The translations under genes and the position numbers were made by a program. The notes under the pieces are model-generated. The model was not told the origin of the DNA. It did not search any database and worked only from the letters and a program-made list of their open reading frames with translations. A DNA stretch of 64,000 bases from a virus, in the IMG/VR virus record IMGVR_UViG_3300042566_002057, positions 87,951 through 151,950 of that record. One strand, 5' to 3'. Shown here piece after piece: positions 1,895 through 62,916 of the stretch. Positions within the stretch are counted from its first letter, which is position 1; each line of letters starts with the position of its first letter.

Positions 1895-2305
1895 TTAATT
1901 CAATATCACCGGGTCAAATATGAAAGCTACACCTTCTATCTTATTATTATTGATAAACTCTTCATTATCTACATAGTTGATGAATTTATCATAACCACCT
2001 AAGCTCATAAATTCTTTAATTTTACTACTATATGGTCCATAAAAATGGACATGAATATTTGTTATCTCCCAATTATTTGAGCAAATGTAATCTTTTGCTC
2101 TTTCAAAATATTCCCTAACATCTGACCATTGGAATAAATTATCATTTGATACTTCTACACAAAACATATCAACTCCTTGTGGTCTCATATCAATATCAAC
2201 TTGATAACCAGAATCTTCAAGTTCAAGAAACATATCTTTAACATCTAATTCTAAATCATGATTGTATACGTTCTCAAATAAAATATACGGTTTTAAATGT
2301 TTCAT
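1895..2305 (-). CDS. Hypothetical protein with N-terminal capsid-targeting-like tag
   Basis: Starts MKHLKPYILFEN. Confidence 0.75.
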   Translation of the reverse strand: MKHLKPYILFENVYNHDLELDVKDMFLELEDSGYQVDIDMRPQGVDMFCVEVSNDNLFQWSDVREYFERAKDYICSNNWEITNIHVHFYGPYSSKIKEFMSLGGYDKFINYVDNEEFINNNKIEGVAFIFDPVILN

Positions 2306-2892
2306 ATTTCATCAAATCTTTTTATCCTGAATATAGAACTTATGTTGTCAAGTTTAGCTTGTATATCACCTATTAATAATCGATGAATTCTATTAAACTG
2401 TCTGTTCTTCTGTATTTCTGTTAATATCTCAGATGTTTCTTGAAAATACTTATTTCTAAATCTTTCAGTAGCCGTAAAAGCATCAGATATATTTTGTAAT
2501 CTATCTGCTAATTTTATGATAAGAGCATCATCTGACATATGAATCATTTTATCGGTTAGATATTCTGTTTTACTACCATCATAACTATCATCAATTTCAT
2601 CGCCATCTGATGTTAGTTCCCAAACTAAATTACCTACTCTTGTTCCAAAAAGTTCTTTCAGTTCAACTAATCCAACTTCTGGATCCTCATAACAATCTTC
2701 TAAAGTATCGTGTAGTAAAGCCGCGCAAAGTAAGTCTTCGTCAGTTGTGTATTGTTTTACAATACCATTTACTTTAACAACATGTGCACCAAAGTAAGGT
2801 TTGTTTATGAATTTCCTTACCTGACCTTTATGTGCTTGTTTTGCGAAGTTCCAAGCTAGTTTTTCTTTTTCTGTAATTGGTCTATTTGCCAT
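2302..2892 (-). CDS. HD-domain small alarmone ((p)ppGpp) hydrolase-like protein
   Basis: AHKGQVRK..PY..H, AALLHDTLED, IKLADRLQN motifs of the RelA/SpoT/Mesh1 HD domain. Confidence 0.85.
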   Translation of the reverse strand: MANRPITEKEKLAWNFAKQAHKGQVRKFINKPYFGAHVVKVNGIVKQYTTDEDLLCAALLHDTLEDCYEDPEVGLVELKELFGTRVGNLVWELTSDGDEIDDSYDGSKTEYLTDKMIHMSDDALIIKLADRLQNISDAFTATERFRNKYFQETSEILTEIQKNRQFNRIHRLLIGDIQAKLDNISSIFRIKRFDEI

Positions 2893-2952
2893 ATCAACTA
2901 TATATAAACTTTCATAAATATAAACAATATAAATAAAAAATAAAATTAATAT

Positions 2953-3150
2953 ATGTCAAGAATTGATTATGATGTTGAAGAGGTAATGTCTGAAAGACCA
3001 AGTTACCGTTATGAGAACAAAGAATATCTTTTAGAAGTATTTATGAACCAATTAGGAATCACTGAGCAGGATTTAGAAAATGATCCTTCTTGGATGAGAG
3101 CTAAAGTTAGAGAAATGAATATCGATAAAGTATTGGATACTCAAAACTAA
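2953..3150 (+). CDS. Small hypothetical protein with C-terminal RxxKIxxIL-type tag
   Basis: Ends VREMNIDKVLDTQN. Confidence 0.65.
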   Translation: MSRIDYDVEEVMSERPSYRYENKEYLLEVFMNQLGITEQDLENDPSWMRAKVREMNIDKVLDTQN

Positions 3151-3154
3151 TTAA

Positions 3155-3288
3155 TTAGTGTAGTGTAAATAGTCCTAGGTGACTGACCGGTATACAAATA
3201 GCACGTACTATTAGCCCTGGCAATAGAGGATACATCAAGCTTGTATCAGATAGTAGGTTGAGGTAATAACCGTTAATCCTCACACAAA
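3155..3288 (+). ncRNA. Candidate tRNA-like structured RNA with expanded loops
   Basis: GTG/CAC, GTGT/GCAC, TACTAT/ATAGTA and TGAGG/CCTCA stems in cloverleaf order; GC-rich non-coding island. Confidence 0.3.
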
Positions 3289-3292
3289 AGTC

Positions 3293-3369: not shown

Positions 3370-3373
3370 TATT

Positions 3374-4636: not shown

Positions 4637-4664
4637 TATATATAAGTAAATTTCCTTAAATTTG
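4637..4664 (+). promoter_or_regulatory. Tandem TATATATA and TAAATTTG promoter elements of RNA ligase
   Basis: TATATATA 4637-4644 and TAAATTTG 4657-4664 before ATG 4670. Confidence 0.45.
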
Positions 4665-4669: not shown

Positions 4670-5992
4670 ATGAAAATATTCAACTACATAGAATTCCTAA
4701 ACGAAAGTGTTTCACTTAATAAAATTCCTACTTATGAGGAATCAGTTGAAATGTGCTCTGGAGAAGATGCTACATTTTATGAGTCAAAATATGAAGTTGA
4801 AGGATTCCCAGTTTCTGTTTTTAACTATCGTTTAGCTCAATACAAAGACTTTGATATGCCTGTTCCATCAAAACCAGAATTAAAAGGTTTTGAGATGCGA
4901 GGTCTTACTTTTGTATTCAATAAAGATGGTTCTCTTTATAACAGATATGTACTACTTGAAAAGTTCTTTAACTTGAATCAAGTTCCTAACTCTATGTATT
5001 CTGTTGTTAAAGATTACAAAATCAGATATGTAAATAATAAAGAAGATGGTTCAATTGCTACTTTTGTGAAATTACCAAACGGTAAAGTAGTTGGTAAATC
5101 TAAAATGGGGTTTGATAACGATCAAGCGAATGGTATTAATAAGATATACAAAACTAATCCAGATGTTAAGTCATTTGTTGATTGGTCACTAAATAATAAT
5201 ATTGTTCCTATATTTGAGTATGTTGCTCCACATAATAGAATCGTTCTTAGGTATTTAGAAGAAGAGCTTATTCTTTTAAGACTTAGAGATAATAAGACTG
5301 GTAGACATATTGATATAAAAGAACATTTAGATAAGATTGGTTCTATCAAAATTTCTCCGTTTGAGGATGATAATACTTTAGATGATTTGATTGAAAAGTC
5401 AAAATCAGAAGTAGATAAAGAAGGATGGATTGTTCAGTTTGATAATGACCATATGGTTAAAATTAAAACTGATTGGTATTTCCAAAGACACGGTTTACTT
5501 ACAAATGATATTTACAGAGAACATGTTATCATTGGTTATATCTTAGATGATTTGATAGATGATGTTATTGCTCAAGTTCCAGAAGATGAAAAAGAAGCAC
5601 ACGAAAGAATTAATAAAATAATCTCAATCGTTAAAAAGGATTTAAGAGATAAGGTTGATGAAATTAATAAAGCTTATAAAGAATTTGTTAATTCTGGTAT
5701 GAGTAAAAGAGATTATGCTATAAATCATAGAGTTGGTAATCCTAACTTTGCTTTTGTTATGAATATGGACAAAGCAGAACAATTAAAGAAAATGTCTAAA
5801 GAAGAGATATTGGATATCTATGATGATATGGAATCCTATGAGTCCTCATTAAAAAGATGTGAACCATTTGAGATGGCTAAAGAATTTATTAGAAACCAAA
5901 CTAAGAGATTAGAAATTGCTAGAGAATGGTTAGAATCAAAAGATTCTACTCTATTTTTTAGAGACCCTGAAGAATCTGAAGATGATAATTAA
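4670..5992 (+). CDS. T4 Rnl1-type RNA ligase with N-terminal capsid-targeting-like tag
   Basis: EMRGL, KFFN, motif I KEDGS, FEY, EGWIV, KIK; starts MKIFNYIEFLNES. Confidence 0.85.
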   Translation: MKIFNYIEFLNESVSLNKIPTYEESVEMCSGEDATFYESKYEVEGFPVSVFNYRLAQYKDFDMPVPSKPELKGFEMRGLTFVFNKDGSLYNRYVLLEKFFNLNQVPNSMYSVVKDYKIRYVNNKEDGSIATFVKLPNGKVVGKSKMGFDNDQANGINKIYKTNPDVKSFVDWSLNNNIVPIFEYVAPHNRIVLRYLEEELILLRLRDNKTGRHIDIKEHLDKIGSIKISPFEDDNTLDDLIEKSKSEVDKEGWIVQFDNDHMVKIKTDWYFQRHGLLTNDIYREHVIIGYILDDLIDDVIAQVPEDEKEAHERINKIISIVKKDLRDKVDEINKAYKEFVNSGMSKRDYAINHRVGNPNFAFVMNMDKAEQLKKMSKEEILDIYDDMESYESSLKRCEPFEMAKEFIRNQTKRLEIAREWLESKDSTLFFRDPEESEDDN

Positions 5993-6017
5993 AGAGAGTT
6001 TTTAACTCTCTTTTTTT
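5991..6017 (+). terminator. Rho-independent terminator
   Basis: AAAGAGAGTT-TTT-AACTCTCTTT plus T run. Confidence 0.75.
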
Positions 6018-6028
6018 ATATATAGTAA

Positions 6029-6826
6029 GTGAAATATCTAAAGTCTTATAAAATATTTGAGAGTTACAATACATTCGGAACTAAATCTATAACTGAAAAA
6101 GAGTTTGATCAGATTAGAAAAGAGAATTGTAAAAACTGGACTAAAGCTGAAACTGAAATATTCAGAGGTATGCCAAATTTAGGTGATTATTTGTTAGTAG
6201 ATCCACTAAAGGGTGACTTTAGAAGTTCAATTGAAGATACTAACATTCATTTAGACCTATTATCAAATCTACCAAGTTGGAAAGATTATCCTAAATATGA
6301 AAGATGTATTATAGGTGGAACTCGTGGATCAGCGACTGGTACTTATGGAGAAGCTGTCTATGAAATGATACCTTTTGATAATACAAAAATTGCGGTTTGT
6401 CCAGAATCAACTATTTGGGAATCATTTGGTAATGATTATGACAGATGGGGAGGTGACATCTATTTAGTTGAACATTTTTTAGACTCAATTGACTTAGATA
6501 CAAGTTGGAATCAGATTGGTGGTGGAACTATTGAGACTAAATTAAAATCTTTAGGTAATAGTTTTCACGGAAGTAAAATTTCAGAAATACCTAATAAAGA
6601 TCAAGAATCAGTAGATAATTTTTTAATGAGACATGCTGAATTTAGTTGGAAAAGACCAAATGAAATTACTGGTGAAGATTGTTTTAATTTTATAAACAAC
6701 AGTCTTTTTAATCCAAAAGTTAGAGGTTTTCAATTATTAAACTATGACCAAAACTTCAGTACAGAAAAAGGTAAACAAGTGTGGACAGAAGGTCCGGTAT
6801 TACTTATCAAATCACATTTAGTTTAG
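6029..6826 (+). CDS. Hypothetical protein with N-terminal capsid-targeting-like tag
   Basis: Starts MKYLKSYKIFES; TATATATA at 6017-6024. Confidence 0.8.
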   Translation: MKYLKSYKIFESYNTFGTKSITEKEFDQIRKENCKNWTKAETEIFRGMPNLGDYLLVDPLKGDFRSSIEDTNIHLDLLSNLPSWKDYPKYERCIIGGTRGSATGTYGEAVYEMIPFDNTKIAVCPESTIWESFGNDYDRWGGDIYLVEHFLDSIDLDTSWNQIGGGTIETKLKSLGNSFHGSKISEIPNKDQESVDNFLMRHAEFSWKRPNEITGEDCFNFINNSLFNPKVRGFQLLNYDQNFSTEKGKQVWTEGPVLLIKSHLV

Positions 6827-7107
6827 AAACTCTTGAAATCTTTTACACCACCGATGTTTTGTAAAATTGGTGCTGTGTTTTTTATACCAGTAACTGGTCT
6901 TACTGTCTGAACTTTATCTACATTTATAACTGAATTCATTTCATCGGGATATTCTGTAAAGTAATCAATAAGAAATTGCTCATTTTCCTCTTCTGATTTT
7001 TCATCATCCCACATACTACGAAGTTGAGTTTTATTTAACTCAACATAATCTCTCACCTTTTTATTTAAATCAGGATTCCATTCAGACCATTCTTTTATGA
7101 ACTTCAT
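6823..7107 (-). CDS. Hypothetical protein with tag-like termini
   Basis: Starts MKFIKEWSEW, ends VKDFKSF; TAATATATA upstream. Confidence 0.7.
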   Translation of the reverse strand: MKFIKEWSEWNPDLNKKVRDYVELNKTQLRSMWDDEKSEEENEQFLIDYFTEYPDEMNSVINVDKVQTVRPVTGIKNTAPILQNIGGVKDFKSF

Positions 7108-7117
7108 TAATTATATA

Positions 7118-7348
7118 TTAATTACCTAATATCGATTTAATCTTTGAGTCTCTTATCTCTTGAACTACTAATTCTTTTAGAAATCTATATGAAGACCTTT
7201 TACCCGACTTATGATTGTAGTAAATTTTTATATGATTTCTATCATCTATATAACCACCGTATTCGCAATATAATGGAACAAAACCTTTTGTTCTCATATT
7301 ATTAAAATACCAACAAATACTTTCATCATTAATCATACTATTATACAA
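7118..7348 (-). CDS. Small hypothetical protein with C-terminal tag
   Basis: Ends EIRDSKIKSILGN. Confidence 0.7.
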   Translation of the reverse strand: MYNSMINDESICWYFNNMRTKGFVPLYCEYGGYIDDRNHIKIYYNHKSGKRSSYRFLKELVVQEIRDSKIKSILGN

Positions 7349-7482: not shown

Positions 7483-9369
7483 ATGAGTAAAAAAGATGTA
7501 ATAATCGGAATTGACTTAGGAACAACAAACTCCTGTGTCGCAGTCGTAGAGGGCGGTGAGCCAATCGTAATCACAAATGCTGAAGGTAAAAGAACAACAC
7601 CATCTGTTGTAGGTTTTACCGACAAAGATCGAAAAATCGGAGATCCTGCTAAGCGTCAAGCAGTTACTAATCCAAAGAAAACAGTTTATTCAATTAAACG
7701 ATTCATTGGTAAAGATTTTTCAGTATGTAAAGATGAGGTAGGTAGAGTACCTTATGAAGTTACAAACGCTGGTGGTAATGTACCAGGTGTGAAAATTGAC
7801 GATCGTGTTTATACACCTCAAGAAGTTTCAGCAATGATTTTGCAAAAAATGAAAAAGACAGCAGAAGATTATCTTGGTCACGAAGTGAATAGAGCAGTAA
7901 TCACAGTACCAGCTTACTTCGGTGATGCTGAAAGAACTGCAACTATTGAAGCTGGTGAAATCGCTGGTCTTAAAGTTGAAAGAATTATCAATGAACCTAC
8001 AGCAGCCGCTTTAGCTTATGGTCTTGATAAGAAAAATACAGATGCTAAAATCTTAGTATTTGACTGTGGTGGTGGTACTCATGACGTATCTGTACTCGAA
8101 ATCGGTGACGGTGTATTTGAAGTAAAATCTACTGATGGTGATACTCACTTAGGTGGTGACGACTTTGATAACGCAATCATCAACTGGATGGTTGAAGAAT
8201 TTAAGAGTGAGCACAATATGGATTTATCAAAAGATCCTATGGCTTTACAACGTCTTAAAGAGGCGGCTGAAAAAGCTAAAATTGAACTTTCTTCAACATC
8301 ACAAAGTGAAATTAATCTTCCGTATATCACAGCTCAGGATGGAATGCCACTTCACTTTGTTAAACAATTGACTCGTTCTAAATTCGACCAAATGACAGCC
8401 AAATTGGTTGAAAGAACTATCGGTTGTGCTAAAAGTGCTCTTAAGTCAGCTGGACTTAAACCGTCTGAGATTGACGAAGTAATTCTTGTTGGTGGCTCAA
8501 CTCGTATTCCAGCAGTTCAAGAAGCACTTGAATCTTACATTGGAAAGAAACCAAACAAATCTGTTAATCCAGATGAAGTGGTTGCTTTAGGAGCGGCTAT
8601 TCAAGGAGCTGTTCTTACTGGAGGAATCACTGATGTTCTTCTTTTAGATGTAACTCCACTTTCATTGGGTATTGAAACTATGGGAAGTGTAATGACAAAA
8701 TTGATTGAAGCTAACACAACAATTCCGACCCGTAAGTCTGAAACGTTCTCTACAGCGGCTGACAATCAATCATCTGTAGAAATTCATGTTCTACAAGGTG
8801 AGCGTCCTATGGCAAAAGATAACCGTTCTTTGGGTCGTTTCCACTTAGATGGAATCATGCCAGCACCGAGAGGAATTCCTCAAATCGAAGTAACATTTGA
8901 TATTGATGCAAATGGAATTCTTTCTGTATCTGCAAAAGATAAGGCTTCTGGTAAAGAGAATACAATTCGTATTGAAGGTGGTTCTCAATTGACTAAAGAA
9001 GAAATCGAAAGAATGAAAGCAGAAGCTGAGGCAAATGCTGAAGCTGACAAACTTGAAAAAGAAAAAGTTGACAAACTGAATATGGCTGATAGTTTGATTT
9101 TCCAAACGGAAAAACAAATGAAAGAATTCGGTGAGAAGTTAACTGAAGAAGATAAGTCAGCAATTAATGTGGACTTAGACGCACTCAAAAAAGCTCACTC
9201 TGATAAAGATGTTGAATCTATTGAGGAAACTTCTAAAAAGTTGAATGAGACTTGGTCTACAATCTCAACCAGATTGTATCAAGAGTCTTCTCAACCAGAA
9301 CCAACAAATGAGGATAACTCTAATCCGAATGATGAGGTTCAAGACGCAGACTTTGAAGAAGTAAAGTAA
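7483..9369 (+). CDS. dnaK: Chaperone DnaK (Hsp70)
   Basis: [33 protein letters not shown]-terminal DADFEEVK. Confidence 0.98.
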
Positions 9370-9528: not shown

Positions 9529-10764
9529 TTATAGTGAGTCGTAGTCTCCGCATGTACTTCTACATTCTCTGTCTAATCCAGAGTAATCAGAATCGTTTGT
9601 AATAACATTTTCATCTAAATTTAAGTAACTCATAGTATCCATATAAGGATAGTAATCCCAATCAACATCATCAGCGTGTACAACAATTCGACCTAATTTT
9701 CTATTTGTTCCATCTGTAATCTGTTCCCATTGTTCCATAGATTGAGAAGTTTTATACCACCATCCATTTTTCTCAGCAAATTGCTTAAACAGTTCTACAT
9801 CAGAATCGTGTGTGGTGTAGATTCTATCCATAAATTTAATAGGACTTCCCTCAAACTCAGCATCCCATAGAATTGCTCTACCTCTAATTTTGTCTGAAAC
9901 ATATTTATCACCAGTGATTGTGCCATTTTCTGAATAAAGAATGACCATAGATACTTGTTTATTGTTACAATAAATGTCAAAGTAAGATGAATTGACACTT
10001 GCCATACAAGAATTATTAAGAGTACCACCACCACTTTGATAATTATCTTCATCATACCAATTTGAAATATCATCACCTTTAACAACATCAAATTGTTTAA
10101 GAGCATCTTTAGCAAAATCGTAAGTTGCTTTATATTGATTAGTAAAATCTTCGATATCTTTGTCAGTGAATGCCACATTAGCACTTCTAAGTAAAGCTCT
10201 CACAAGTCTACCAATTTTCATATTGTTTCTTGAAGTTGACCAAACAGCTTTTATTTCTGGATCATTTACTTCTAAACAACTTTTATTTAATACAGTTAGT
10301 CTTGGATTTTCAACATCATACTCTTGAAATAGTACAAAAGTTTTTCCAGAAACTGAACTTATTGTTTCAGATAAAATAGTACCAAATATTCCAATATCAG
10401 GTGCCCAATTTGGTCTACCTTCTTTATTATAACCAAGTGCTTCAAATATTTTATTATTTTTATCACTATGAGTTAGATACTTACCTGATTCAACAACCAT
10501 CCAAGTTTCTGGTTTACCAGCGTAAAGCTCTTGAGCTTTTCTATCTGGTGTAAAACTAACAGCATCTTTCTCATCCGTTATGTCAATAAAGTTATATTGT
10601 ACTGGATAATCCTTTGAGTTTATTTTAATTAGTTCTGATGAAATCTTGTTACTATTAAACTTATTAATTAAGTTTATAAACTTTGATGAGAATACTACTT
10701 TAGATTCAAGTAGTAAATCATATATTTGGTTTTCTAATAAAAATTCGTTATATCTATTAATCAT
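9529..10764 (-). CDS. Phage hypothetical protein with N-terminal capsid-targeting-like tag
   Basis: Starts MINRYNEFLLE; GTLNNSCM, GRAILW, FMDRIY and YPYMDT motifs. Confidence 0.8.
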   Translation of the reverse strand: MINRYNEFLLENQIYDLLLESKVVFSSKFINLINKFNSNKISSELIKINSKDYPVQYNFIDITDEKDAVSFTPDRKAQELYAGKPETWMVVESGKYLTHSDKNNKIFEALGYNKEGRPNWAPDIGIFGTILSETISSVSGKTFVLFQEYDVENPRLTVLNKSCLEVNDPEIKAVWSTSRNNMKIGRLVRALLRSANVAFTDKDIEDFTNQYKATYDFAKDALKQFDVVKGDDISNWYDEDNYQSGGGTLNNSCMASVNSSYFDIYCNNKQVSMVILYSENGTITGDKYVSDKIRGRAILWDAEFEGSPIKFMDRIYTTHDSDVELFKQFAEKNGWWYKTSQSMEQWEQITDGTNRKLGRIVVHADDVDWDYYPYMDTMSYLNLDENVITNDSDYSGLDRECRSTCGDYDSL

Positions 10765-10854
10765 AAAAAAATTATTTGTCTTAAAACTATATATTAATTA
10801 AGAATTTTCAATATTCAATTTTTTAACCAAAAATGTAAAATTATATATACCTAT

Positions 10855-12678: not shown

Positions 12679-13242
12679 CTATTCAGTTTCTATCTTGAAT
12701 TCTTCATCATTATCATCAAATGTTTCATCTAACTCTAACTTTAAGTCAATAATTAAATCTTCAGAAATTTTCTTAATCTCTGTGTTTTTAGATATTTGAC
12801 CCATTATCTCAAAGTTAGCAGCGATATCATACTTTTTAAATTTGATATAACAATTTTTTATATCGTCTATTGTGAAATCTTTGTTTGGATCTTTTGGTAA
12901 AGCTTCTTTTAAGTCAATCATTATAATCATAGTGTACATAAAATCAGCATCTTGAAATGTTACACTTAACGAATCATATAACTTAGAGTATTTAGAAATT
13001 TCAGAGTTTTCTAATCTTAAACCTAAGTCTTTAAAAGACATCTTTGACTTATCTTTAGCGTCTTCTTTAGCTTTCTTTATTGATTTTGTTGTTTCTTCTT
13101 CTGGCTCTCTATCCGATCCTTCATACTCAAACATCTTATCAATCTTTCTTTTAAGTTGACTTAGTAAAGTAGAGATATAAGTTTCTGGAGTATCATTCAA
13201 TAATTCCTCTTTGATAAACTCTGTAAATTTAATAACTTTCAT
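12679..13242 (-). CDS. Hypothetical protein with N-terminal capsid-targeting-like tag
   Basis: Starts MKVIKFTEFIKEE; TAATATATA upstream. Confidence 0.75.
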   Translation of the reverse strand: MKVIKFTEFIKEELLNDTPETYISTLLSQLKRKIDKMFEYEGSDREPEEETTKSIKKAKEDAKDKSKMSFKDLGLRLENSEISKYSKLYDSLSVTFQDADFMYTMIIMIDLKEALPKDPNKDFTIDDIKNCYIKFKKYDIAANFEIMGQISKNTEIKKISEDLIIDLKLELDETFDDNDEEFKIETE

Positions 13243-13267
13243 ATTGTATATATTAAATATTTATCCT

Positions 13268-14207: not shown

Positions 14208-14409
14208 TTTTGTTAGAATATTTACTGAACCTGATGGTATCTGGTCGGTTTCATTTACTGGTAAAATAATCGACTACGAATCTGGGTTAAAAGAACCTGT
14301 TTACATAGTTGAGACTTATTCATCTAATCTTAGGTTTCCGGAATCGGCGTTAAAACATAACAATCCAGATGATGAAAGAGATTGGAAACTTAAACAATTA
14401 TTAAAATGA
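14098..14409 (+). CDS. SH3/KOW-like small protein with C-terminal tag
   Basis: KFSKGDFVRI...; ends ERDWKLKQLLK; start uncertain, overlaps uvsE. Confidence 0.6.
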   Translation: MKKLKHLVLTLIQRLKRKQKTSQLSDTDNNLKFSKGDFVRIFTEPDGIWSVSFTGKIIDYESGLKEPVYIVETYSSNLRFPESALKHNNPDDERDWKLKQLLK

Positions 14410-14723
14410 TAAAAAGACTATTATCTATATTCAAGAAAAATAAAGTAGAAAATAACTATGGTTATATCAAATTTGATAAAGGTGACGAAGTTAAAGTAAC
14501 TATCTACTCAGAGATACCAGAATTTTGGTATGTTGGTGAAGTATTAGATATTAATGCTAGATATGTTATACCTTCAATTGAATCAAGTTGGCAAGTAGAA
14601 TATTATGTTGTTTTTATTAATAGTATGAATGACAAAGTGACCGAATGGTTCTCAGAATCACAGTTGATGAAATACTCTTTACAAGAAGAACGTAACTCAC
14701 GAATAGAACAGATATTAAACTAA
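14406..14723 (+). CDS. SH3/KOW-like small protein with C-terminal tag
   Basis: KFDKGDEVKV...WFSESQL; ends ERNSRIEQILN. Confidence 0.7.
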   Translation: MIKRLLSIFKKNKVENNYGYIKFDKGDEVKVTIYSEIPEFWYVGEVLDINARYVIPSIESSWQVEYYVVFINSMNDKVTEWFSESQLMKYSLQEERNSRIEQILN

Positions 14724-18780: not shown

Positions 18781-19170
18781 TTATTGTTTATCAAGTTGTT
18801 TATAATACTTTAGCTCTTCTTTTATAAAATCAGGAAAATTATTTACTAAGTAAGTAATATCCGAGTCTTTTAATTTAAGTCTTAGCATTAAAAGTTTGAA
18901 ATCCTTTTCAGGTATTTCTGGTTTATCAGTAGGTGACTTTGACCAAAACCACTGAGGATAAGGTTTGCCTTTCATAAAATAAAACCACAAATCCATTCCA
19001 TCTGATTTATTTGTGGTCTTCATATTAAGTAAATGACTTTTCTCTGGATATTTTTTACTAAAATATCGATTGAATATAAAAAACAACTTTTCTTTATCAT
19101 CATCAGTAATTTTTTCCCAATCACTTCTATTTCTAAACATCGCATTTGCGACATCAATTAATTCCGCCAT
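18781..19170 (-). CDS. Hypothetical protein (weak resemblance to T4 clamp-loader small subunit)
   Basis: 129-aa ORF coupled to the exonuclease gene; FFIFNRYFS motif only suggestive. Confidence 0.5.
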   Translation of the reverse strand: MAELIDVANAMFRNRSDWEKITDDDKEKLFFIFNRYFSKKYPEKSHLLNMKTTNKSDGMDLWFYFMKGKPYPQWFWSKSPTDKPEIPEKDFKLLMLRLKLKDSDITYLVNNFPDFIKEELKYYKQLDKQ

Positions 19171-22132: not shown

Positions 22133-22161
22133 ATACTATATATAAAATTTGTGTTATTAAA

Positions 22162-23024: not shown

Positions 23025-23267
23025 TTAATTTATAATTTGTGAAATTTTATCATCTCTATCTAATTGTAAAGTATCAATTTCAAACAATGGAAATCCATCA
23101 ATTCTTGAAGGATTTAAGTATTTAACCCAAACTAATTTTCCTTCATATTTATCATAGTTAAATACCATACCAAACTCTACGCTATCAATAACTCTCATTT
23201 TAGAAAAGTCTAATATAATTATCTGATTATTATGTTCTAACTCCTCTGATTTTATTGTAAATTTCAT
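23025..23267 (-). CDS. Small hypothetical protein with C-terminal tag
   Basis: Ends DRDDKISQIIN. Confidence 0.7.
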   Translation of the reverse strand: MKFTIKSEELEHNNQIIILDFSKMRVIDSVEFGMVFNYDKYEGKLVWVKYLNPSRIDGFPLFEIDTLQLDRDDKISQIIN

Positions 23268-40058: not shown

Positions 40059-40340
40059 GTGAAAGTTTATTGCAAAAGAACATATTTAACACAAAACACA
40101 AACACTTATCAAATTCTTGGTAAAAGTTATGGTGAGAGTTACGCAGTTTGGGAAAAAGGTAAGTTCTATCAATTTAGACAACCAAAAGACTATGAAAAAG
40201 AAGTTGGTGTTTATTATTTAATAGAGTCTGAAAGAGAATCTTTCTGGAATCCAATAAAAGAAAAAGAATTCAAAAAACATTTTATAGATGTTGATGAATT
40301 AAGACAAAATAAAATTAACGAAATACTTAAAAATGGTTAA
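40059..40340 (+). CDS. Small SH3-like protein with C-terminal tag
   Basis: Ends LRQNKINEILKNG. Confidence 0.7.
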   Translation: MKVYCKRTYLTQNTNTYQILGKSYGESYAVWEKGKFYQFRQPKDYEKEVGVYYLIESERESFWNPIKEKEFKKHFIDVDELRQNKINEILKNG

Positions 40341-45376: not shown

Positions 45377-47149
45377 ATGCAAGAAAACCAAAATACCGAG
45401 GAATTAAAAGAACCAGTTGTTGGAAACTTTAAACCTAAAAGAAAATTCTTAAACTTTGTTTCAGCTGTAAACGGAGCGCGTATTCGATTCATACGAGACG
45501 TGGCTTTTCTAAAAGGTGAAAAACTATCTGGGTTCTTAGAAAATGTCATCTTCAAAATCACTATTTGTGAAGAAGGAACTATTAAGTTTGAGGAACAAGA
45601 TGGAACTAATCTTTCTGACGAGAATATGATTAATCGTTTAATCGATGAAATTGATGCGATGGAAGTGACTGGATACGCTCAAAAGTTTGTTGTTAGTGGT
45701 TTAGAGTTTGCTGATGTCAATGGTGACCGATGTTATCTTGAAGTTGAACATCAAAAACCAATCGATAAATTAAAATCTATTTTTGATGATGAAGAAAAGG
45801 TAGAGATTTCTGAAAAAAGTTTGAGTTTAATTGATGATTTATTTGGATCTTCTGATGATGAGTTTGATGAAGATCACGCACTATCTGAGGTGTTAAATAA
45901 TATGGTGATGGAACTTTCGGAAGAAGATGCTAAAACTCTTGTAGAAACAATTGAAAATCCACCAGCTCCTAACGAAAAACTTAAAGAAGCGGCTGAGTCA
46001 TATATGGAAAAACAATTCCGTAAAATGAATGAGGAAAAGGTTATGGAATTGGAGTACCGTATTGAAGAAACTCAGAAAGAAATCATTCGTTATAAAAGTG
46101 ATGTAAAAATGGCTCAGAAAAAGATGGATGAAAAATCAGAGTCTCTAAAAGTACTTGAAAGTAGATTAGAAAGTATGAAACCAGGTGACGAACCAAACGG
46201 ATATGTGTTCTATGTTTCAGAAGAGATTAAAGATATGGAAGGTCTGGATGAAACAGAAGCAAAAGTTGCGGCTAAGATTGCAGACATTATGAAATTAAAA
46301 ATTGATGTCTTAACTGAAATGTTGACTGGTGGTTACTACAAAATCAAAATTGCTAAGAAAGATGATATCACTAATCAAGAGTTTGAGTTAGAAAAAGAAG
46401 TCTATCAAAAAATTGCATCTTTGGATGTAGAAGGTAAACTTTCTATTGTTGATGGTGAGTTTCAGTATCGTGGTAAAATGACTTGGCATCAAATCGTTGG
46501 TAAAATGATTCGTATGGGATTTGAACAAGAACCAGAGTTTGATAAATTGTGTCAGTCTAATTCTTATGACTCTCACGAAGAAGATAAGTCAACTGAAATG
46601 GATCTAGGTAATGGTATGGTTGACTCTGTATCTGAAACTTCAGTTTCTACAAAGCCAACTTCAACAGAGATTAAATCCAAAACTCTTAAAACCTTCAGTG
46701 AAGAAACTACATTAGTAGTTATGGGTACAATTGACCACGATGATAACCGTGATGTTGAGATTACTGATGATTTTACTGGATTTGGAGTGTGTGTTGGTGA
46801 TAAAATGATGAAATCATCTTATGAGTCTGATGGATTTATCTCAATTATGACTTTACCAGAGTTTAAGATGTGGCAATCACAATACCCAGATGCTATGACT
46901 GATGGTGGTGGAATAGGTTCATTTTTACTACCTAACTTCAAGGGAACTATTGGTGTAACTGCTATGATTGATGATGAATTCACAGCTGACTTTGATTTAA
47001 GTGATTTCATTCAACATCAATATGGAATGGAAGAGGCTGAAGTGTTTTTAACATTACCAGAAGGAACTGAGATTGTGAAAATGGGTGATTATCACCAAGT
47101 TCCAGTTGCAGCAATGAGAGATATCAAAATTGATAAAATTATTGAATAA
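45377..47149 (+). CDS. Large acidic coiled-coil protein with C-terminal tag
   Basis: 590 aa; ends MRDIKIDKIIE; TATCTTTG at 45356-45363. Confidence 0.8.
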   Translation: MQENQNTEELKEPVVGNFKPKRKFLNFVSAVNGARIRFIRDVAFLKGEKLSGFLENVIFKITICEEGTIKFEEQDGTNLSDENMINRLIDEIDAMEVTGYAQKFVVSGLEFADVNGDRCYLEVEHQKPIDKLKSIFDDEEKVEISEKSLSLIDDLFGSSDDEFDEDHALSEVLNNMVMELSEEDAKTLVETIENPPAPNEKLKEAAESYMEKQFRKMNEEKVMELEYRIEETQKEIIRYKSDVKMAQKKMDEKSESLKVLESRLESMKPGDEPNGYVFYVSEEIKDMEGLDETEAKVAAKIADIMKLKIDVLTEMLTGGYYKIKIAKKDDITNQEFELEKEVYQKIASLDVEGKLSIVDGEFQYRGKMTWHQIVGKMIRMGFEQEPEFDKLCQSNSYDSHEEDKSTEMDLGNGMVDSVSETSVSTKPTSTEIKSKTLKTFSEETTLVVMGTIDHDDNRDVEITDDFTGFGVCVGDKMMKSSYESDGFISIMTLPEFKMWQSQYPDAMTDGGGIGSFLLPNFKGTIGVTAMIDDEFTADFDLSDFIQHQYGMEEAEVFLTLPEGTEIVKMGDYHQVPVAAMRDIKIDKIIE

Positions 47150-47532
47150 TGGGTTTTACAAGATACTGGGAATTTAGTGGTTTAGATGAAGAGAAGTTTA
47201 GTGACTTCTCTTCTGTCTGTAAGGTATTGGTAGATAGTATAAACATACCACTTGAAGATATTACTATAAATGAAAGACAAGTCAGATTCAACGGTGTCGA
47301 TGAAGATGGTCACGAAACTTTTTATTTTAGTCTAGATAAATCAGGTTTTAACTTTTGTAAAACAAATATAAAACCTTATGATGAAGTCGTTTGTGGGTGT
47401 TTATATATTGCTAAGGTTATTTTTGGTGAAGATATTCGTATAAACCAAGACTGTGACCAAGGTGATGAACATATCGTACAAAAAGTAAAAAGTATACTGA
47501 GAGAAAATAAATTAGATAAAATATTAAATTAG
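47149..47532 (+). CDS. Phage hypothetical protein with C-terminal tag
   Basis: MGFTRYW..FNG..HETF..FCKT..KPYD; ends LRENKLDKILN. Confidence 0.75.
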   Translation: MGFTRYWEFSGLDEEKFSDFSSVCKVLVDSINIPLEDITINERQVRFNGVDEDGHETFYFSLDKSGFNFCKTNIKPYDEVVCGCLYIAKVIFGEDIRINQDCDQGDEHIVQKVKSILRENKLDKILN

Positions 47533-50547: not shown

Positions 50548-51046
50548 TGTTTTAGAATTTGACCATTTACACGAATATAAACACGCTTGGAATATGTCAG
50601 CCCGAGCGTGTTATTATATTTTTGAAAATTTGAATCGTTGTTTAATACTTTATCGATACAAATTGTCAGATGGTTTTATTTGGCAAAGATTTGGTGTTAC
50701 CGAACCATCTAAAATTAAACTTGATAAGATAAGTAGTGATAGTTTATTTATTTTCCATTTAGACATCTATAAAGAATCCACAGAAGATTTATCTAAACTA
50801 TTAGACTTTTGTTTGGAGAATAATATTGATGTTTATATTCCAATTAAAAGTAATAACTCACCGGTAAAAGATGGGTATGATTACTCACATATTGATAAGA
50901 TACGAGAGACATTAGAACGATATGAAACGACAAGATATGACCTTACTAATATTTCTTATAATAATTCTAAAGAAATCGAAAAGTCTATTAATGAAGCTAC
51001 AAAGCCAATAATCAGAGATATAAATATTAAAAGACTATTAGATTAG
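50540..51046 (+). CDS. Hypothetical protein with C-terminal tag
   Basis: Ends IRDINIKRLLD. Confidence 0.7.
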   Translation: MINVLEFDHLHEYKHAWNMSARACYYIFENLNRCLILYRYKLSDGFIWQRFGVTEPSKIKLDKISSDSLFIFHLDIYKESTEDLSKLLDFCLENNIDVYIPIKSNNSPVKDGYDYSHIDKIRETLERYETTRYDLTNISYNNSKEIEKSINEATKPIIRDINIKRLLD

Positions 51047-51294
51047 TATTCAATCTTTTTAACGTCTTGTAGATCTACTGTATATTCTTTTCCATCAATA
51101 TCAACGGTGATTAAACCATCTTCATCCATATCGACTGGTCTTACACCATCAGTTGGATTATCCGGTAGATTGTGAACTATATCTGTATAAATTAGTCCAC
51201 CTTTTTTTATACAATTTATAACATCATCTTGTGTGATGAGAGTTCCTTCATCATTATTTTTCTTAAAGTCCTCAAATAAAAGTAATTTCCTCAT
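51043..51294 (-). CDS. Small protein with N-terminal capsid-targeting-like tag
   Basis: ATG 51294 gives MRKLLLFEDF; shares a TATATATA with the divergent gene at 51342. Confidence 0.65.
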   Translation of the reverse strand: MRKLLLFEDFKKNNDEGTLITQDDVINCIKKGGLIYTDIVHNLPDNPTDGVRPVDMDEDGLITVDIDGKEYTVDLQDVKKIEY

Positions 51295-51341
51295 CAAATT
51301 GCAAATGATTTTTAATATATATAAAAAAATTATAATTACAA

Positions 51342-58501: not shown

Positions 58502-58509
58502 AATATATA
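58502..58509 (+). promoter_or_regulatory. AATATATA putative late promoter
   Basis: 6 nt before ATG 58516; the motif recurs before most N-tagged genes. Confidence 0.5.
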
Positions 58510-58515: not shown

Positions 58516-59331
58516 ATGAAATATCTTAAATCATTTAATGAAGAGCTAAATCCACAAACTTACAGAAATGCAAGTAGTAAACTTTCTTACTATGGTAAAC
58601 AAAAAAGTTCTGATGCTCTTTATGATTTTGCTGATGAAAAACAATATGGTTTTTACAACGCAGTAGTTTGTAAAGGACAAAGTATGCCTACTAAAGATGC
58701 TAAGCTAACACAACCTGAACTAAGTGGAATTTATTCCGGAAACAAAGCTAAAGATGGAAATGACAACTTGTTAAAATGGGGTAAAGACATCGAAAATGAA
58801 TTGAACATTTTAGTTGAAAAATGGAAAGCAGGTGATTCTAATTTGAGTTTACAATTTGAGTTCTCTTTTAGAGCTACTCGACAAACAAAAAATGTAGCTA
58901 AGTCATTAGAACAAATGTATATAATACCATTTATTATCTTAGAAGTCAGACTTAGTGAATTTGAATATGGTATTGAAGAATGGGACGCAGAGGCTAGTTG
59001 GGAAAATGAGGAATTCACCCCATCAACACTTTCTGAGATGTTTGAGTATTCTAAAGAGTTTTCAGTTTATACACAAAGACCAATAAGTGATTTAACTTAT
59101 GGTTTATTCAATGATAGACAATCAGCACAAAAATTTAAATCATTTGTAAATTCAATAGTAGATGAGAAAATGAAACCACATATCATGGAAGTATTAAGTA
59201 TTGTTGGTGGAACATCTCAAGATTTAGAGAATATTTTAAATTCAATTAGAAATATTAGAATACACGGTCTTTATCAATCAGATGTTACTGGTTACGAGAC
59301 TATTAAAAATTTATATGATAAACAATTATGA
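58516..59331 (+). CDS. Tandem paralog 1, N-terminal capsid-targeting-like tag
   Basis: MKYLKSFNEELNPQTY..A..KL; FNDRQSAQKFK. Confidence 0.8.
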   Translation: MKYLKSFNEELNPQTYRNASSKLSYYGKQKSSDALYDFADEKQYGFYNAVVCKGQSMPTKDAKLTQPELSGIYSGNKAKDGNDNLLKWGKDIENELNILVEKWKAGDSNLSLQFEFSFRATRQTKNVAKSLEQMYIIPFIILEVRLSEFEYGIEEWDAEASWENEEFTPSTLSEMFEYSKEFSVYTQRPISDLTYGLFNDRQSAQKFKSFVNSIVDEKMKPHIMEVLSIVGGTSQDLENILNSIRNIRIHGLYQSDVTGYETIKNLYDKQL

Positions 59332-60053
59332 GATACTTAAAAAAATTTAATGAAGAGTTAAGACCTATGACATATATGTCAGCTGCTAGAAAGTTAGATA
59401 AAATGGGTCACCATGATAGAGCTACTGTACTTAAAGACTGGGCTGGAGAAATGGAAAAGAAAGAAGAAATGCTCAAATGGAAAGACCGTATTCAGGACTA
59501 TGCCCCATTTGGTACATTTAATCTGACTGTAAAAAATCCAGAGACTGGTAAAAAGTTAGTAGGTGATTTCCATTTAGATATTAATTTTGATGATTTAAGT
59601 TTTTCTGATGAACCAGAAAACGGAATAGGTTTATTTATAGGTTTAATTCCTTCATCTGAAGAACTGATTTATCAGTATATGGAATTGTGTGCTGATCATG
59701 ACTTTGGAAACGGTTTCTTCTGGGGTAAAATATTCCACATGAACTATAAATTAACAGATAAAGTAGAATTTACTAAGTGGAATCTCTGGGATTATGATAG
59801 TGAAATGAATGGTGAAGTAGCTTTTTCTGACAGAGCTTCTGCTAATAAATTTAAGAATCTACTTATTAAAATATTTACTGATCCTAATTTAGGATATCCA
59901 TCTGGTTATAATGATGTTGAGTATATGTATCAAAAATTACAAGCATCAATATTAATTGAAAATTCCTTCTCATCAGAGTATGGATTAGAACTAGAACACA
60001 TAGCTGATTATATCAAAACAATATCTCCAAACGTACTTTATAAAGCTCTATGA
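59328..60053 (+). CDS. Tandem paralog 2, N-terminal capsid-targeting-like tag
   Basis: MRYLKKFNEELRPMTY..A..KL..MGH; FSDRASANKFK. Confidence 0.8.
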   Translation: MRYLKKFNEELRPMTYMSAARKLDKMGHHDRATVLKDWAGEMEKKEEMLKWKDRIQDYAPFGTFNLTVKNPETGKKLVGDFHLDINFDDLSFSDEPENGIGLFIGLIPSSEELIYQYMELCADHDFGNGFFWGKIFHMNYKLTDKVEFTKWNLWDYDSEMNGEVAFSDRASANKFKNLLIKIFTDPNLGYPSGYNDVEYMYQKLQASILIENSFSSEYGLELEHIADYIKTISPNVLYKAL

Positions 60054-60922
60054 AACACTTAAAGTCATATAATTTATTTGAGGAACTTAAATCAGATACC
60101 TATAAACAGGCTGGTGATAAGTTAAAGAATATGGGTCATATAAGAAGAGGTACCGAATTATTAACTTATGCAGAAGAAATAAAGTTAAGAGAAGAAAAAG
60201 CTAAACATCAACAAAAATTTGACAGTCTAGAAAAATGGGGAATTTTTGACCTTTCAATATATCGAGGAAGATGGGACTCAACAATTAAAAGTACAACGTT
60301 TTCTGATCCAAAAATTTCAGGAAAGTTTCTTATAGAATGTGTTTTTGACGGTAGTTGGTTTTCGGATATGATAGACAATTGGTTAGATGAAGATAAACAA
60401 TACAATCTTAGTTTTCCAATAGAAGTATCTTTAATGCCATATGATGATGAGACTTTAATTAAATTCAAAGAACTTGTTGAAAAAGATGAATTCAGTAGAG
60501 AAACTTATAATGGACTTCTACCATCTTCAAGAGTTTGGATAACAATTATTAGAGGAGGACAAGTTAATATTTCAAATAATGGACCAGTATTCTGGGAGGC
60601 TGTTGAAAGTGATTATGTCTTTTTCAATAATAGATCAGAAGCTATGAAGTTTAAATCACTTTTAGTTTCTGCAATCAGTGGTCAAAATGATTACTGTTCT
60701 AGTCCATACTCAAAAGGATTACATAAGGACATCATTGAGTTTATCGAACGAGAAGAAAAAGTTCAACAAGAAATAGAAGAAGGAAAAGAAAGAGAAGAAT
60801 GTTCTGATAGATATAAATACAACAGAATTAAAGAACATGGTCCTGTAGTTAAAATGGAAGATTTTCCTAAGATTGTAAGTTCAGTAAAGTCATTCTCACT
60901 AAATCAATTATATAAAGACTAA
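60050..60922 (+). CDS. Tandem paralog 3, N-terminal capsid-targeting-like tag
   Basis: MKHLKSYNLFEELKSDTY..A..KL..MGH; FNNRSEAMKFK. Confidence 0.8.
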   Translation: MKHLKSYNLFEELKSDTYKQAGDKLKNMGHIRRGTELLTYAEEIKLREEKAKHQQKFDSLEKWGIFDLSIYRGRWDSTIKSTTFSDPKISGKFLIECVFDGSWFSDMIDNWLDEDKQYNLSFPIEVSLMPYDDETLIKFKELVEKDEFSRETYNGLLPSSRVWITIIRGGQVNISNNGPVFWEAVESDYVFFNNRSEAMKFKSLLVSAISGQNDYCSSPYSKGLHKDIIEFIEREEKVQQEIEEGKEREECSDRYKYNRIKEHGPVVKMEDFPKIVSSVKSFSLNQLYKD

Positions 60923-61713
60923 TGAAAAAATTATCAACATATAATAAGTTCAATGAAGAGTTAAAATCTTCTACCTATTTAAGTGCTGCTCAAAAACTTC
61001 AGAAAATGGGTCATAGTAGAAGACCAGAAGTTCTTAAAGCTTGGGCTGAAGAAGTTAGACAAAGAGAAACTGATAGAATAACTAAGAAGAATCTAGAAGA
61101 ATCTGAAAAGTTAGGTCTTTATCAAATAAAAATCAAAACTAATAAAAGACATTTTGATGCCAATGTTTATATTTCTTTATCTTGGATTGACGACACATTT
61201 AGTGATTCAGTATACGATTTTAAGAATGATGAAAGTAGCGGTTTATACCTACAGTTTAGTTTTGGATTAATTCCAGCTGATGCTGAAACTCTTGATAACT
61301 TTAATGAATGTCTAAATGACTTTTTAAGTCCAAGTTATGGAATTTGGTGGTTACAAGATATGTGGTTATGTGTAAGTAAATCAATGTCATCAGTAACTGA
61401 ACAGGATATTAAAATGTATCCTGACTTAGATCCTGATAAAGATTTGATACCAAGTCCAAATTGTAGCTTTGAGGGCATTGAAATATCAACAGCTTATTTT
61501 AGCAACAGACAAAGTGCTATGAAATTTAAGCAAACTCTTTATAACATATTTAGCTCCAATTTAATATACAGACAAAGTTCAGAAAATCCAGGAGGAATGG
61601 CTGAAAAAATCAGAGAAGAAATCGTTGGTGAACACGGATTTGGATTCGATGAATACTTGAGATTTGTTGAAGGTATTAAATTAATTAGAATCAATTCTTT
61701 ATATAGAGATTAA
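60922..61713 (+). CDS. Tandem paralog 4, N-terminal capsid-targeting-like tag
   Basis: MKKLSTYNKFNEELKSSTY..A..KL..MGH; FSNRQSAMKFK. Confidence 0.8.
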   Translation: MKKLSTYNKFNEELKSSTYLSAAQKLQKMGHSRRPEVLKAWAEEVRQRETDRITKKNLEESEKLGLYQIKIKTNKRHFDANVYISLSWIDDTFSDSVYDFKNDESSGLYLQFSFGLIPADAETLDNFNECLNDFLSPSYGIWWLQDMWLCVSKSMSSVTEQDIKMYPDLDPDKDLIPSPNCSFEGIEISTAYFSNRQSAMKFKQTLYNIFSSNLIYRQSSENPGGMAEKIREEIVGEHGFGFDEYLRFVEGIKLIRINSLYRD

Positions 61714-61720
61714 ATTTTAT

Positions 61721-61739
61721 TATCTTTGTTTAATATATA
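61721..61739 (+). promoter_or_regulatory. Tandem TATCTTTG and AATATATA elements of the CCA-adding enzyme gene
   Basis: TATCTTTG 61721-61728, AATATATA 61732-61739. Confidence 0.45.
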
Positions 61740-61743
61740 ACTA

Positions 61744-62916
61744 ATGAAAATTAAAAAATACCAACAATTTTTAGAATCTCAAAGTTCTGATATGTGGAAT
61801 ATAATTCCTCAATCAGTTAAAGATTTACAATTACTTTTCAAATCAAAGGGAAAGAAACTGTATATAGTTGGTGGTGCCGTTAGAGATTTTCTCACTGGTG
61901 ATAAACCAAAAGACTTTGACTTAGCAACTGATGCACTTCCAGATGAAGTATTAGAAATAATCGGAAAAGATTATAGAACTAACTTACAAGGTAAAGCATT
62001 CGGTGTAGTAGTTGTTTATACCGACGATGAACCAGAAGGAATGGAAATTGCAACATTCAGAGAAGATGTTAGTAAAGGTAGAAATCCTGAGGTTAAATTA
62101 GGAGCTACAATTGAAGACGATGTTAAACGAAGAGATTTAACATACAATGCGCTTTTCTATGATTTAGATTCTAAAGATATTGTTGATTTAACTGGAGGAC
62201 GTGAGCATTTAGCAAAAGGAATAACTCAAATGGTTGGTGATCCTACTGAAAGATTTGACGAAGATTCTCTAAGAATTCTTAGAGCGTTTAGATTCGCTTC
62301 AAGATATGGACATCCTTTACATAAAGATACTGAAAAGGCAATTGAGAAAAGAAAACAATTGGAAAACATTGATCCTGAAACTGGTGAAATGAAAAGAATT
62401 AGTCAAGAAAGAGTTTGGGAGGAGATGAAAAAAGCTTGGAAACAAGCAAGAGATTATAGAAACTATCTTAACTTCTTTACTAAATTTGATATGTGGCAGG
62501 AAGTCTTTCCGGAAGCTAACATAAATACATCATTAGTTGATAGTAAAGATTTTACAATTGTAATTGCAAATCTATTTAAGAATGAATCTTTAGATGGTTT
62601 AGAAAAGAAATTAGTTCAAGATTATAAAATTGAGTCTGAATTGGTAAATAAAGTAGTTTTCCTAATATCACTTTTAGATTTTAGAGTAGAGAATGTATTT
62701 GATGTCTACAAAAAAAGACAACAGTGTGGTATCTCAGATTCTACTATTTTAGAGTGGATAAAAGTTGAAGGTATATCTAACGATAACTTAGTTAAGTTCG
62801 TTGACTACAAACCATCTATATCAGCTCAGGAGTTAATGTCAAAGGGGTTTAAGGGTAAAGAACTCGGTGATGAAATAAAAAGATTAGAAGTTGAAAAATT
62901 TAAATCAATGTTATAA
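61744..62916 (+). CDS. cca: Class II tRNA nucleotidyltransferase (CCA-adding / poly(A) polymerase family) with capsid-targeting-like tag
   Basis: VGGAVRD..DFDLAT, RRDLTYNAL, EDSLRILRAFRF; starts MKIKKYQQFLES. Confidence 0.88.
   Translation: MKIKKYQQFLESQSSDMWNIIPQSVKDLQLLFKSKGKKLYIVGGAVRDFLTGDKPKDFDLATDALPDEVLEIIGKDYRTNLQGKAFGVVVVYTDDEPEGMEIATFREDVSKGRNPEVKLGATIEDDVKRRDLTYNALFYDLDSKDIVDLTGGREHLAKGITQMVGDPTERFDEDSLRILRAFRFASRYGHPLHKDTEKAIEKRKQLENIDPETGEMKRISQERVWEEMKKAWKQARDYRNYLNFFTKFDMWQEVFPEANINTSLVDSKDFTIVIANLFKNESLDGLEKKLVQDYKIESELVNKVVFLISLLDFRVENVFDVYKKRQQCGISDSTILEWIKVEGISNDNLVKFVDYKPSISAQELMSKGFKGKELGDEIKRLEVEKFKSML

Follow-up and report, generated by a model that had tools for sequence, protein, structure and literature searches.

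A short N-terminal tag resembling the T4 capsid-targeting sequence on about one gene in seven of a putative megaphage contig

The stretch of DNA analysed here, referred to as the window, consists of 64,000 nucleotides and is the 3' terminal part of an IMG/VR virus contig of 151,950 bp that has a G+C content of 31% (IMGVR_UViG_3300042566_002057, positions 87,951 to 151,950). We have found that many of its genes encode proteins starting with a short tag that resembles the capsid-targeting sequence (CTS) of phage T4, in which an N-terminal tag loads proteins into the head and is then cut off. Open reading frames (ORFs) were called by a mechanical rule that took the longest ORFs, with a minimum of 50 aa, and removed overlaps greedily. 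The contig has 205 such ORFs, a few of which are spurious and overlie tRNA genes. Tagged ORFs account for 30 of these 205, about one gene in seven, with a clear tag on 14 ORFs in the window and 16 further tagged ORFs outside it. A preliminary description of the window had proposed about 16 tagged proteins; all 16 N-termini are present in the sequence at the positions given below, and 14 of them are clear whereas MRKLLLFEDF (51294) is marginal and MKFIKEWSEW (7107) is doubtful. A putative promoter element, TAATATATA (hereafter the element), precedes tagged genes as well as head and tail genes.

The contig carries T4-like replication genes (topoisomerase II subunits and a gp32-type SSB), and two complete genomes of uncultured phages, LR745206.1 (634,780 bp), the nearest complete relative, and LR756502.1 (642,428 bp), share 80% identity with it in the topoisomerase II large subunit. 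A published survey assigns all of its largest genomes to the 'Mahaphage' clade and predicts that those above 634 kb replicate in Bacteroidetes (PMC7162821). Because of this match to complete genomes that probably belong to the Mahaphage clade, the contig is likely to represent only part of a megaphage genome, perhaps a quarter of it. The 16 window genes are the following, with the start of each protein and its matrix score in bits, as defined below:

1895..2305, minus strand: ORF of 136 aa, MKHLKPYILFEN, 10.8 bits; follows the HD-domain gene 2302..2892 as the second gene of an operon, with no element directly upstream; no match in Pfam or PHROG
4670..5992, plus strand: T4 Rnl1-type RNA ligase of 440 aa, MKIFNYIEFLNES, 9.2 bits; PF09511 (4.2e-17) and phrog_562 (1.3e-55), domain from residue 22; element at 4637..4644, 25 nt 5' of the ATG
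6029..6826, plus strand: ORF of 265 aa with a GTG start, MKYLKSYKIFES, 9.9 bits; phrog_12810 (function unknown); element at 6017..6024, 4 nt before the start
6823..7107, minus strand: protein of 94 aa with a doubtful tag, MKFIKEWSEW, Trp replacing Tyr/Phe, 0.8 bits; element at 7112..7119, 4 nt before the start
9529..10764, minus strand: ORF of 411 aa, MINRYNEFLLEN, 14.8 bits, with exactly the T4 spacing Y-x-x-F-L-x-E; element at 10788..10795; paralogous to contig ORF 38756..40693 (BLASTP 1e-32)
12679..13242, minus strand: ORF of 187 aa, MKVIKFTEFIKEE, from the seed alignment; element at 13247..13254, 4 nt before the start; the LR745206.1 ortholog is also tagged and begins MKIRKYIEFITED
20591..22132, minus strand: ORF of 513 aa with a GTG start, MINKFNNYISINE, from the seed alignment; phrog_1462 (function unknown); element at 22137..22144, 4 nt before the start
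25168..25833, minus strand: ORF of 221 aa, MERVKSYQEFMILE, 8.3 bits; element at 25838..25845, 4 nt before the start
28051..28353, plus strand: ORF of 100 aa, MERMKRYEDFKNES, 9.9 bits; directly 3' of the topoisomerase II medium-subunit gene, with no element of its own
34561..34944, minus strand: ORF of 127 aa, MKHLKTFENFNINE, 12.9 bits; second gene after 34947..35693, whose start has an element 4 nt upstream
51043..51294, minus strand: protein of 83 aa counted from Met 51294 with a marginal tag, MRKLLLFEDF, 5.6 bits; the true start, 51294, is an internal Met of the longest ORF and has its own element at 51316..51323, 21 nt before the ATG
58516..59331, plus strand: ORF of 271 aa, MKYLKSFNEEL, 16.3 bits; first gene of a four-gene tagged array; element at 58502..58509, 6 nt before the start
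59328..60053, plus strand: ORF of 241 aa, paralog family, MRYLKKFNEEL, 11.5 bits; BLASTP matches to the proteins starting at 60050 and 60922
60050..60922, plus strand: ORF of 290 aa, paralog family, MKHLKSYNLFEEL, 16.2 bits
60922..61713, plus strand: ORF of 263 aa, paralog family, MKKLSTYNKFNEEL, 12.8 bits
61744..62916, plus strand: CCA-adding enzyme (tRNA nucleotidyltransferase) of 390 aa, MKIKKYQQFLES, 13.6 bits; PF01743 (9.3e-30) from residue 39; element at 61732..61739, 4 nt before the start

Thirty hand-picked N-termini served as the seed set, and their MAFFT alignment gave the consensus M-[KR]-[YH]-[LI]-K-x-[YF]-x-x-[F]-x-E-[SN]. Two forms of the tag occur, a short one (MKYLKRFNES) and a long one (e.g. 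MKYLKSYKIFES or MINRYNEFLLEN), and starts of the MKYLKRFNE type are found outside the window at, among others, contig positions 15229, 73945, 75461, 78934, 79422, and 79853. The best conserved positions are a hydrophobic residue at 4 and Tyr/Phe at about 7, position 7 being Tyr or Phe in 28 of the 30 tags and often followed, three residues further, by a second Phe, and an aromatic anchor lies at residue 5-10 in 30/30 seeds. A position matrix of 10 columns was anchored on this aromatic residue, and the seeds were scored leave-one-out. At a threshold of at least 10 bits, 16 of 1,435 N-terminal windows of the whole contig scored, compared to 9 of 44,150 internal windows (odds ratio 55, p=1.3e-18), and at a threshold of at least 8 bits the corresponding figures within the 64-kb window were 12/609 and 10/19,016 (odds ratio 38, p=3.5e-13). 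The motif is therefore enriched 38- to 55-fold at N-termini over internal positions. Only 1 of 307 out-of-frame decoy ORFs reached 8 bits, a score attained by 12 of the 16 listed N-termini; MKVIKFTEFIKEE and MINKFNNYISINE fit by eye and have the hydrophobic-x-Glu site. Furthermore, a pattern written from knowledge of T4 alone, [YFW]xx[YFW][ILVM]xE, showed an N-terminal enrichment of about 9-fold for the contig and of about 7-fold for LR745206.1.

The tag typically ends in hydrophobic-x-Glu. Such a string, ending at residues 8-16, was found in 27/30 tagged and 31/175 untagged contig ORFs (p=1.5e-14), and in 84 of the 87 tagged ORFs of LR745206.1 against 27% of its untagged ones. In its form, this ending looks like the sites of the T4 prohead protease. 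Position P3 is occupied by F, I, L or Y, and most of the residues found at P1' are S, N, E or A. Tag-like strings had also been pointed out at the C-termini of some proteins, a claim that was not borne out: the last 16 residues showed no matrix enrichment (2/1,435), and these look-alikes were rejected as variants of the tag.

In the T4 CTS, targeting depends on residues 4 and 7 and processing on residues 8 and 10 (PMC9026906). When scored with the matrix built only from the contig tags, the T4 sequence MKTYQEFIAE obtained 15.1 bits, mostly from K2, Y4, E6, and F7, a value equalled by just 2 of the 44,150 internal windows. The same matrix was run over all 1,580 ATG-initiated ORFs of at least 40 aa in the T4 genome (NC_000866), and the top four were gp61.1 (15.5 bits), ipIII (15.1), ipII (15.1), and ipI (10.9), with no other T4 ORF reaching 10 bits. 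The likeness to the T4 sequence, which had first been noticed from the sequence alone, therefore stands up to an objective test, and by this test, the strongest single result of our analysis, the tag and the T4 CTS are statistically the same motif. The product of T4 gene 61.1 (18966..19130) is a hypothetical protein of 54 aa that starts MKTFKEFIKE; as it outscores ipI, it is possibly an unrecognised CTS-bearing T4 protein.

Both sequences extend for about 10 residues from Met1, with Lys at 2, a hydrophobic residue at 4, an aromatic one at 7 and a terminal hydrophobic-x-Glu, and both sit on unrelated cargo; for the contig, head genes of the gp20/gp21/gp23 type are seen in its nearest complete relatives. 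However, the two systems differ in scale, since 30/205 ORFs are tagged here and 87/942 in LR745206.1 compared to four T4 ORFs of at least 10 bits, and in cargo, which in T4 is small, basic and DNA-bound and here reaches about 660 aa and includes RNA-repair enzymes. In addition, the position of the Glu shifts here (residues 8-14), the short form MKYLKRFNES also exists, and packaging is a prediction from the sequence.

We then have to consider at which level the motif is maintained. The synonymous codons used for K, L, F, Y, E, N, S, and I at tag codons 2-14 are the same as in the gene bodies and in untagged 5' ends, and 12 of the 30 tagged genes begin inside operons, with unrelated sequence upstream and no adjacent promoter. 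Because of these two observations the signal lies in the protein and not in DNA or RNA, and a nucleotide-level signal such as an operator, a promoter extension or a recombination cassette was rejected. Among 120 metagenomic orthologs of the CCA-adding enzyme with at least 80% identity, 62 have the same length (390 aa), and in all 62 residues M1, K2, K4, Y6, Q8, F9, L10, E11, and S12 are invariant, whereas residues 13-16, which lie ahead of the conserved domain, vary. Selection acts on the tag at the protein level. An AlphaFold2 model of the same enzyme places a helix over residues 2-11, to which we give little weight: it derives from a shallow alignment and is a poor model (mean pLDDT 67, with residues 1-10 at 31).

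These data bear on the view that the tag would be a by-product of start signals, that is, of AT-rich first codons favoured in leaderless mRNAs that start 4-5 nt past the element. The element does lie within 8 nt of the start codon in 14 of the 30 tagged genes, and tags are 4.6-fold enriched in the close-promoter class of LR745206.1. However, wobble positions follow background codon use, position 7 takes Tyr or Phe and not any AT-rich codon, the Glu codon contains a G, the same close promoter is used by 16 untagged genes, and the 12 tagged genes within operons have no promoter nearby. We consider this view very improbable.

The carriers of the tag are diverse. After removal of the first 20 residues the 30 tagged proteins fall into 26 BLASTP groups, by which a single paralog family was rejected at the BLAST level. 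Three of them have clear domains: the Rnl1 RNA ligase, the CCA-adding enzyme and a 2H phosphoesterase (contig 74922..75461) that matches PF13563 (2_5_RNA_ligase2, 3e-11) and Acb1 (30.1 bits), both over the cut-off. The domain start was checked for Rnl1 and for the CCA-adding enzyme, and in both it lies after the tag. Taken together, these three proteins resemble a tRNA-repair set, and Acb1 is an anti-CBASS protein. In LR745206.1, 16 tagged contig proteins have reciprocal best matches (32-77% identity), and 15 of these 16 partners are themselves tagged or begin with something similar to a tag, 10 of them reaching 8 bits and some having the short form in place of the long one. The partner of contig ORF 148000 has no tag start, probably as a result of a mis-called start codon.

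It could be argued that the tag is just the inherited N-terminus of one old, duplicated and diverged family, or of a mobile cassette, with no sorting role. In favour of common descent, tandem arrays are frequent (58516-61713 in the window; 73213-75832 and 78934-80107 on the contig), there are three small paralog groups, and most tagged bodies have no known domain. Nevertheless, it would have to account for the 26 BLAST families, for three carriers that belong to well-known enzyme families (in two of which the tag precedes the domain), for the absence of nucleotide-level conservation, for a tag that is invariant in the 62 CCA enzymes while the next four residues vary, and for orthologs that exchange the short and long forms but stay tagged. 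Common descent without a sorting role is therefore improbable in our judgement.

According to the preliminary description, almost all of these genes were behind a TATATA element or in an operon led by one. This was confirmed: [AT]ATATATA lies at a distance of 4-25 nt from the start codon in 10 of the 16 window genes, and each of the remaining six belongs to an element-led operon as a downstream member. On the whole contig the element was found at this distance before 18/30 tagged genes and 26/175 other genes. In LR745206.1, 54% of 430 element sites are followed within 60 nt by an ORF on the same strand (4.5% expected), and their spacing shows a sharp peak at 4-5 nt (81 genes) and a broad one at 17-28 nt. 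The 4-5 nt class implies leaderless or nearly leaderless mRNAs. Tags are carried by 26% of the near-promoter genes of this genome, 14% of the far-promoter genes and 6% of the rest. The element also precedes its portal, protease-scaffold, capsid, and sheath-like genes and is not found before the DNA polymerase pieces, which fits with a co-expression of tagged genes and head genes.

Tagged ORFs were also counted in relatives. LR745206.1 has 87 tagged ORFs out of 942 (110 at a threshold of 8 bits or more) compared to 54 of 183,982 internal windows, and the 462-kb LR756500.1 has 27 out of 670, with the consensus MKYIKEYEEF[IL]NE. A Pfam analysis of 86 tagged LR745206.1 proteins identified a CCA enzyme, Rnl1, a 2H/Acb1-like protein, NFACT-R, GH108, an RNase_T-type exonuclease and a helix-turn-helix protein, and no core replication or tail protein was present in this set.

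In LR745206.1, the genes of a gp20 portal (2.7e-57) and of a gp23 capsid protein (1.8e-26) flank that of a 707-aa fusion of a gp21-type protease and a scaffold (198546..200669). The first 160 residues of this fusion are 35% identical to the S77 protease of the Xanthomonas phage XacN1 and contain the motifs GEFDHP and VSSRA, and its middle part consists of about 12 tandem 14-residue units, Y-S-E-Y-[IL]-A-E-N-L-D-K-N-I-x, each of them with an I/L-A-E site of the protease type. LR756504.1 (636 kb) and LR756501.1 (735 kb) have the same fusion and repeats, which are degenerate in LR756500.1. The unit Y-S-E-Y-I-A-E strikingly resembles Y-Q-E-F-I-A-E of T4. Co-variation between tag and scaffold could not be used as evidence, since the repeats hardly differ among the 634-, 636-, and 735-kb genomes, and the 462-kb genome, with its degenerate repeats, has tags that are if anything more T4-like. 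A tag-like string was also seen in the gp23 homolog of LR745206.1 (200752..202434), where residues ~40-53, upstream of the Pfam Gp23 match that starts at residue 86, read SEYAEFHSINE-N, an aromatic-x-x-aromatic string ending in I-N-E with P3-P1 as in many tags. Searches for a gp24 homolog, and for Terminase_6C in LR745206.1, found no match.

XacN1, a cultured and distant relative, has a proper S77 protease and no expansion of the tag. Its sole two CTS-like N-termini (MRFxxYLIE) belong to the unannotated ORF314 (190362..191417), near baseplate genes, and ORF352 (238329..239063), adjoining a 'structural protein' (AP018399.1). An experimental link through this phage was set aside, as there are only these two starts and the text of the paper names neither product as a virion protein.

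All these data argue for a genuine N-terminal address tag, acting at the protein level and of the same kind as the T4 CTS, whose number has been expanded about 20-fold. As to the destination, the best supported reading is that these 10-13 residues would be a capsid-targeting sequence as in T4, and we regard the arguments for and against capsid loading as about evenly balanced. The tagged genes would be transcribed from the promoter type of the head genes, and the short amphipathic tag would dock each protein on the scaffolding core of the assembling prohead, which in the complete relatives may be formed by the gp21-type protease fused to its ~12 repeats of a 14-residue unit. Once the gp23 shell closes, the protease would cut after the Glu of the tag, and the freed cargo would remain inside the head, from which it may reach the next host together with the DNA. 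Docking, cleavage at the Glu and retention in the head are steps that we infer; injection of the tagged proteins into the host is less certain than capsid loading and is something that we only infer as well. For the contig, the cargo would include the Rnl1 ligase, the CCA-adding enzyme and the LigT/Acb1-like 2H phosphoesterase, possibly a ready-made kit for RNA repair or counter-defence.

Several observations weigh against capsid loading. T4 internal proteins are basic and located within the packaged DNA (bioRxiv 10.1101/2021.01.19.427310), whereas the tagged proteins are acidic, with a median pI of 4.9 against 5.4 on the contig (p=3e-4) and 4.8 against 5.5 in LR745206.1 (p=1e-7), and with 20% Asp/Glu in residues 13-42. 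Their median length is 242 aa on the contig and 161 aa in LR745206.1, and they do not have the character of the IPI-III cargo (small, highly basic and embedded in DNA). The scale is also without precedent, 9-15% of the ORFs compared to 4 of about 280 T4 genes. The 152-kb contig contains no prohead protease, scaffold or capsid gene of its own, gp23 being represented by two sub-threshold fragments only, and the head module is known just from relatives with a ~80% identical topoisomerase; moreover, the protease domain of these relatives is under the Pfam S77 cut-off (16.8-24.7 bits). A matrix made from 21 repeats of two relatives enriched N-termini only 2- to 4.6-fold, with small counts, and for this reason the likeness between tag and scaffold unit is taken as pattern-level only (aromatic-x-x-aromatic-hydrophobic-x-Glu); an identity of the tag with the scaffold repeat beyond this was rejected. 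Finally, the topoisomerase II gene is also preceded by the element, which is therefore not strictly late.

Alternatively, the tag would be an address or recognition peptide for a target other than the capsid, such as a phage hub or assembly factory, the DnaK/DnaJ of the phage itself, or a protease or degron system that times turnover, and its likeness to the T4 CTS would be that of a common short amphipathic helix. The acidic cargo includes cytoplasmic RNA enzymes of a kind not packaged by T4, a capsid would have to take in a very large number of tagged proteins, and both DnaK and DnaJ are encoded by the phage (a DnaK-type Hsp70 with a typical N-terminus at 7483..9369 of the window, and a DnaJ-like protein with a J-domain start at contig 86280..87347). 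On the other hand, the matrix retrieves precisely the three internal virion proteins of T4, the conserved Glu after a hydrophobic residue suits a cleavage site of the gp21 type, the scaffold of the relatives consists of CTS-like units fused to the protease, and the promoter type is shared with head genes. We consider a non-capsid target rather unlikely.

The existence of a second tag also enters this comparison, as two mutually exclusive tags would suit a general two-way sorting. A C-terminal tag, R-[DE]-x-K-[IL]-x-x-[IL]-[ILF], was observed in 20 contig ORFs and in 94 ORFs of LR745206.1, mostly small (median 110-125 aa), including 7118..7348, 14406..14723, 23025..23267, 40059..40340, 45377..47149, and 47149..47532 in the window. 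The suggestion that it excludes the N-terminal tag held in both genomes: none of the 20 C-tagged contig ORFs is also N-tagged (2.9 expected, p=0.036), and in LR745206.1 there was no overlap between 87 N-tagged and 94 C-tagged ORFs (8.7 expected, p=6.7e-5).

Loading of proteins into a shell through terminal peptides has been described in other systems. In phiKZ-like giant phages (SPN3US, phiKZ, and 201phi2-1), which have about 50 head proteins, N-terminal propeptides also help to load many head-internal proteins, and a prohead protease related to gp21 removes these propeptides after Glu (PMC5694885, PMC10052503). These phages belong to another lineage in which no gp22-type scaffold has been identified, and their propeptides differ from the tag in being mostly longer than 100 residues, without a common 10-residue motif, and cleaved at Ala/Ser/Gly-x-Glu. 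The cargo-loading peptides of encapsulins are alike by description, as a short conserved terminal peptide brings unrelated enzymes into an HK97-fold shell; in contrast to the tag, they are usually C-terminal, bind the shell protein and not a scaffold, and are not removed by a protease.

Extending capsid loading to the Mahaphage megaphages as a group, we tentatively propose that the T4 CTS could have become a proteome-wide address code, by which each genome would dock some 90-110 different proteins, most of them acidic, on a protease-scaffold of CTS-like repeats, free them in the head by a cut after the Glu and bring them into the host together with its DNA; a second, mutually exclusive C-terminal tag would direct about another 10% of the proteins elsewhere. 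In this joint and equally tentative proposal the cargo would include the Rnl1/2H/CCA RNA-repair set, an Acb1-like enzyme and a peptidoglycan hydrolase. If the tag acts as it does in T4, infection by the largest phages known would begin with the delivery of a set of ready enzymes broader than any seen before, which would help to explain how genomes of at least 600 kb establish infection before their own gene expression, and about 10% of their ORFs, many of them unknown, would gain a predicted location in one step. The tag could also be a handle for loading foreign proteins into large capsids, a use already made of the T4 CTS, and the fusion of CTS-like repeats to the protease hints at a possible origin of the CTS. 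In our literature search we found no paper linking 'capsid targeting sequence' to huge phages or giving the motif strings in a phage context, and the Mahaphage papers do not mention an N-terminal tag.

Two further observations were made in the window. A 740-aa protein (31594..33816) has a signal-like N-terminus and a C-terminal end that resembles a type IX secretion sorting domain, which is consistent with a Bacteroidota host. In addition, a palindromic sequence, TTATATATATT, lies within 51295..51341, between the divergent genes that start at 51294 (minus strand) and 51342 (plus strand); it contains the element at 51316..51323 and could act as a promoter element for both genes.

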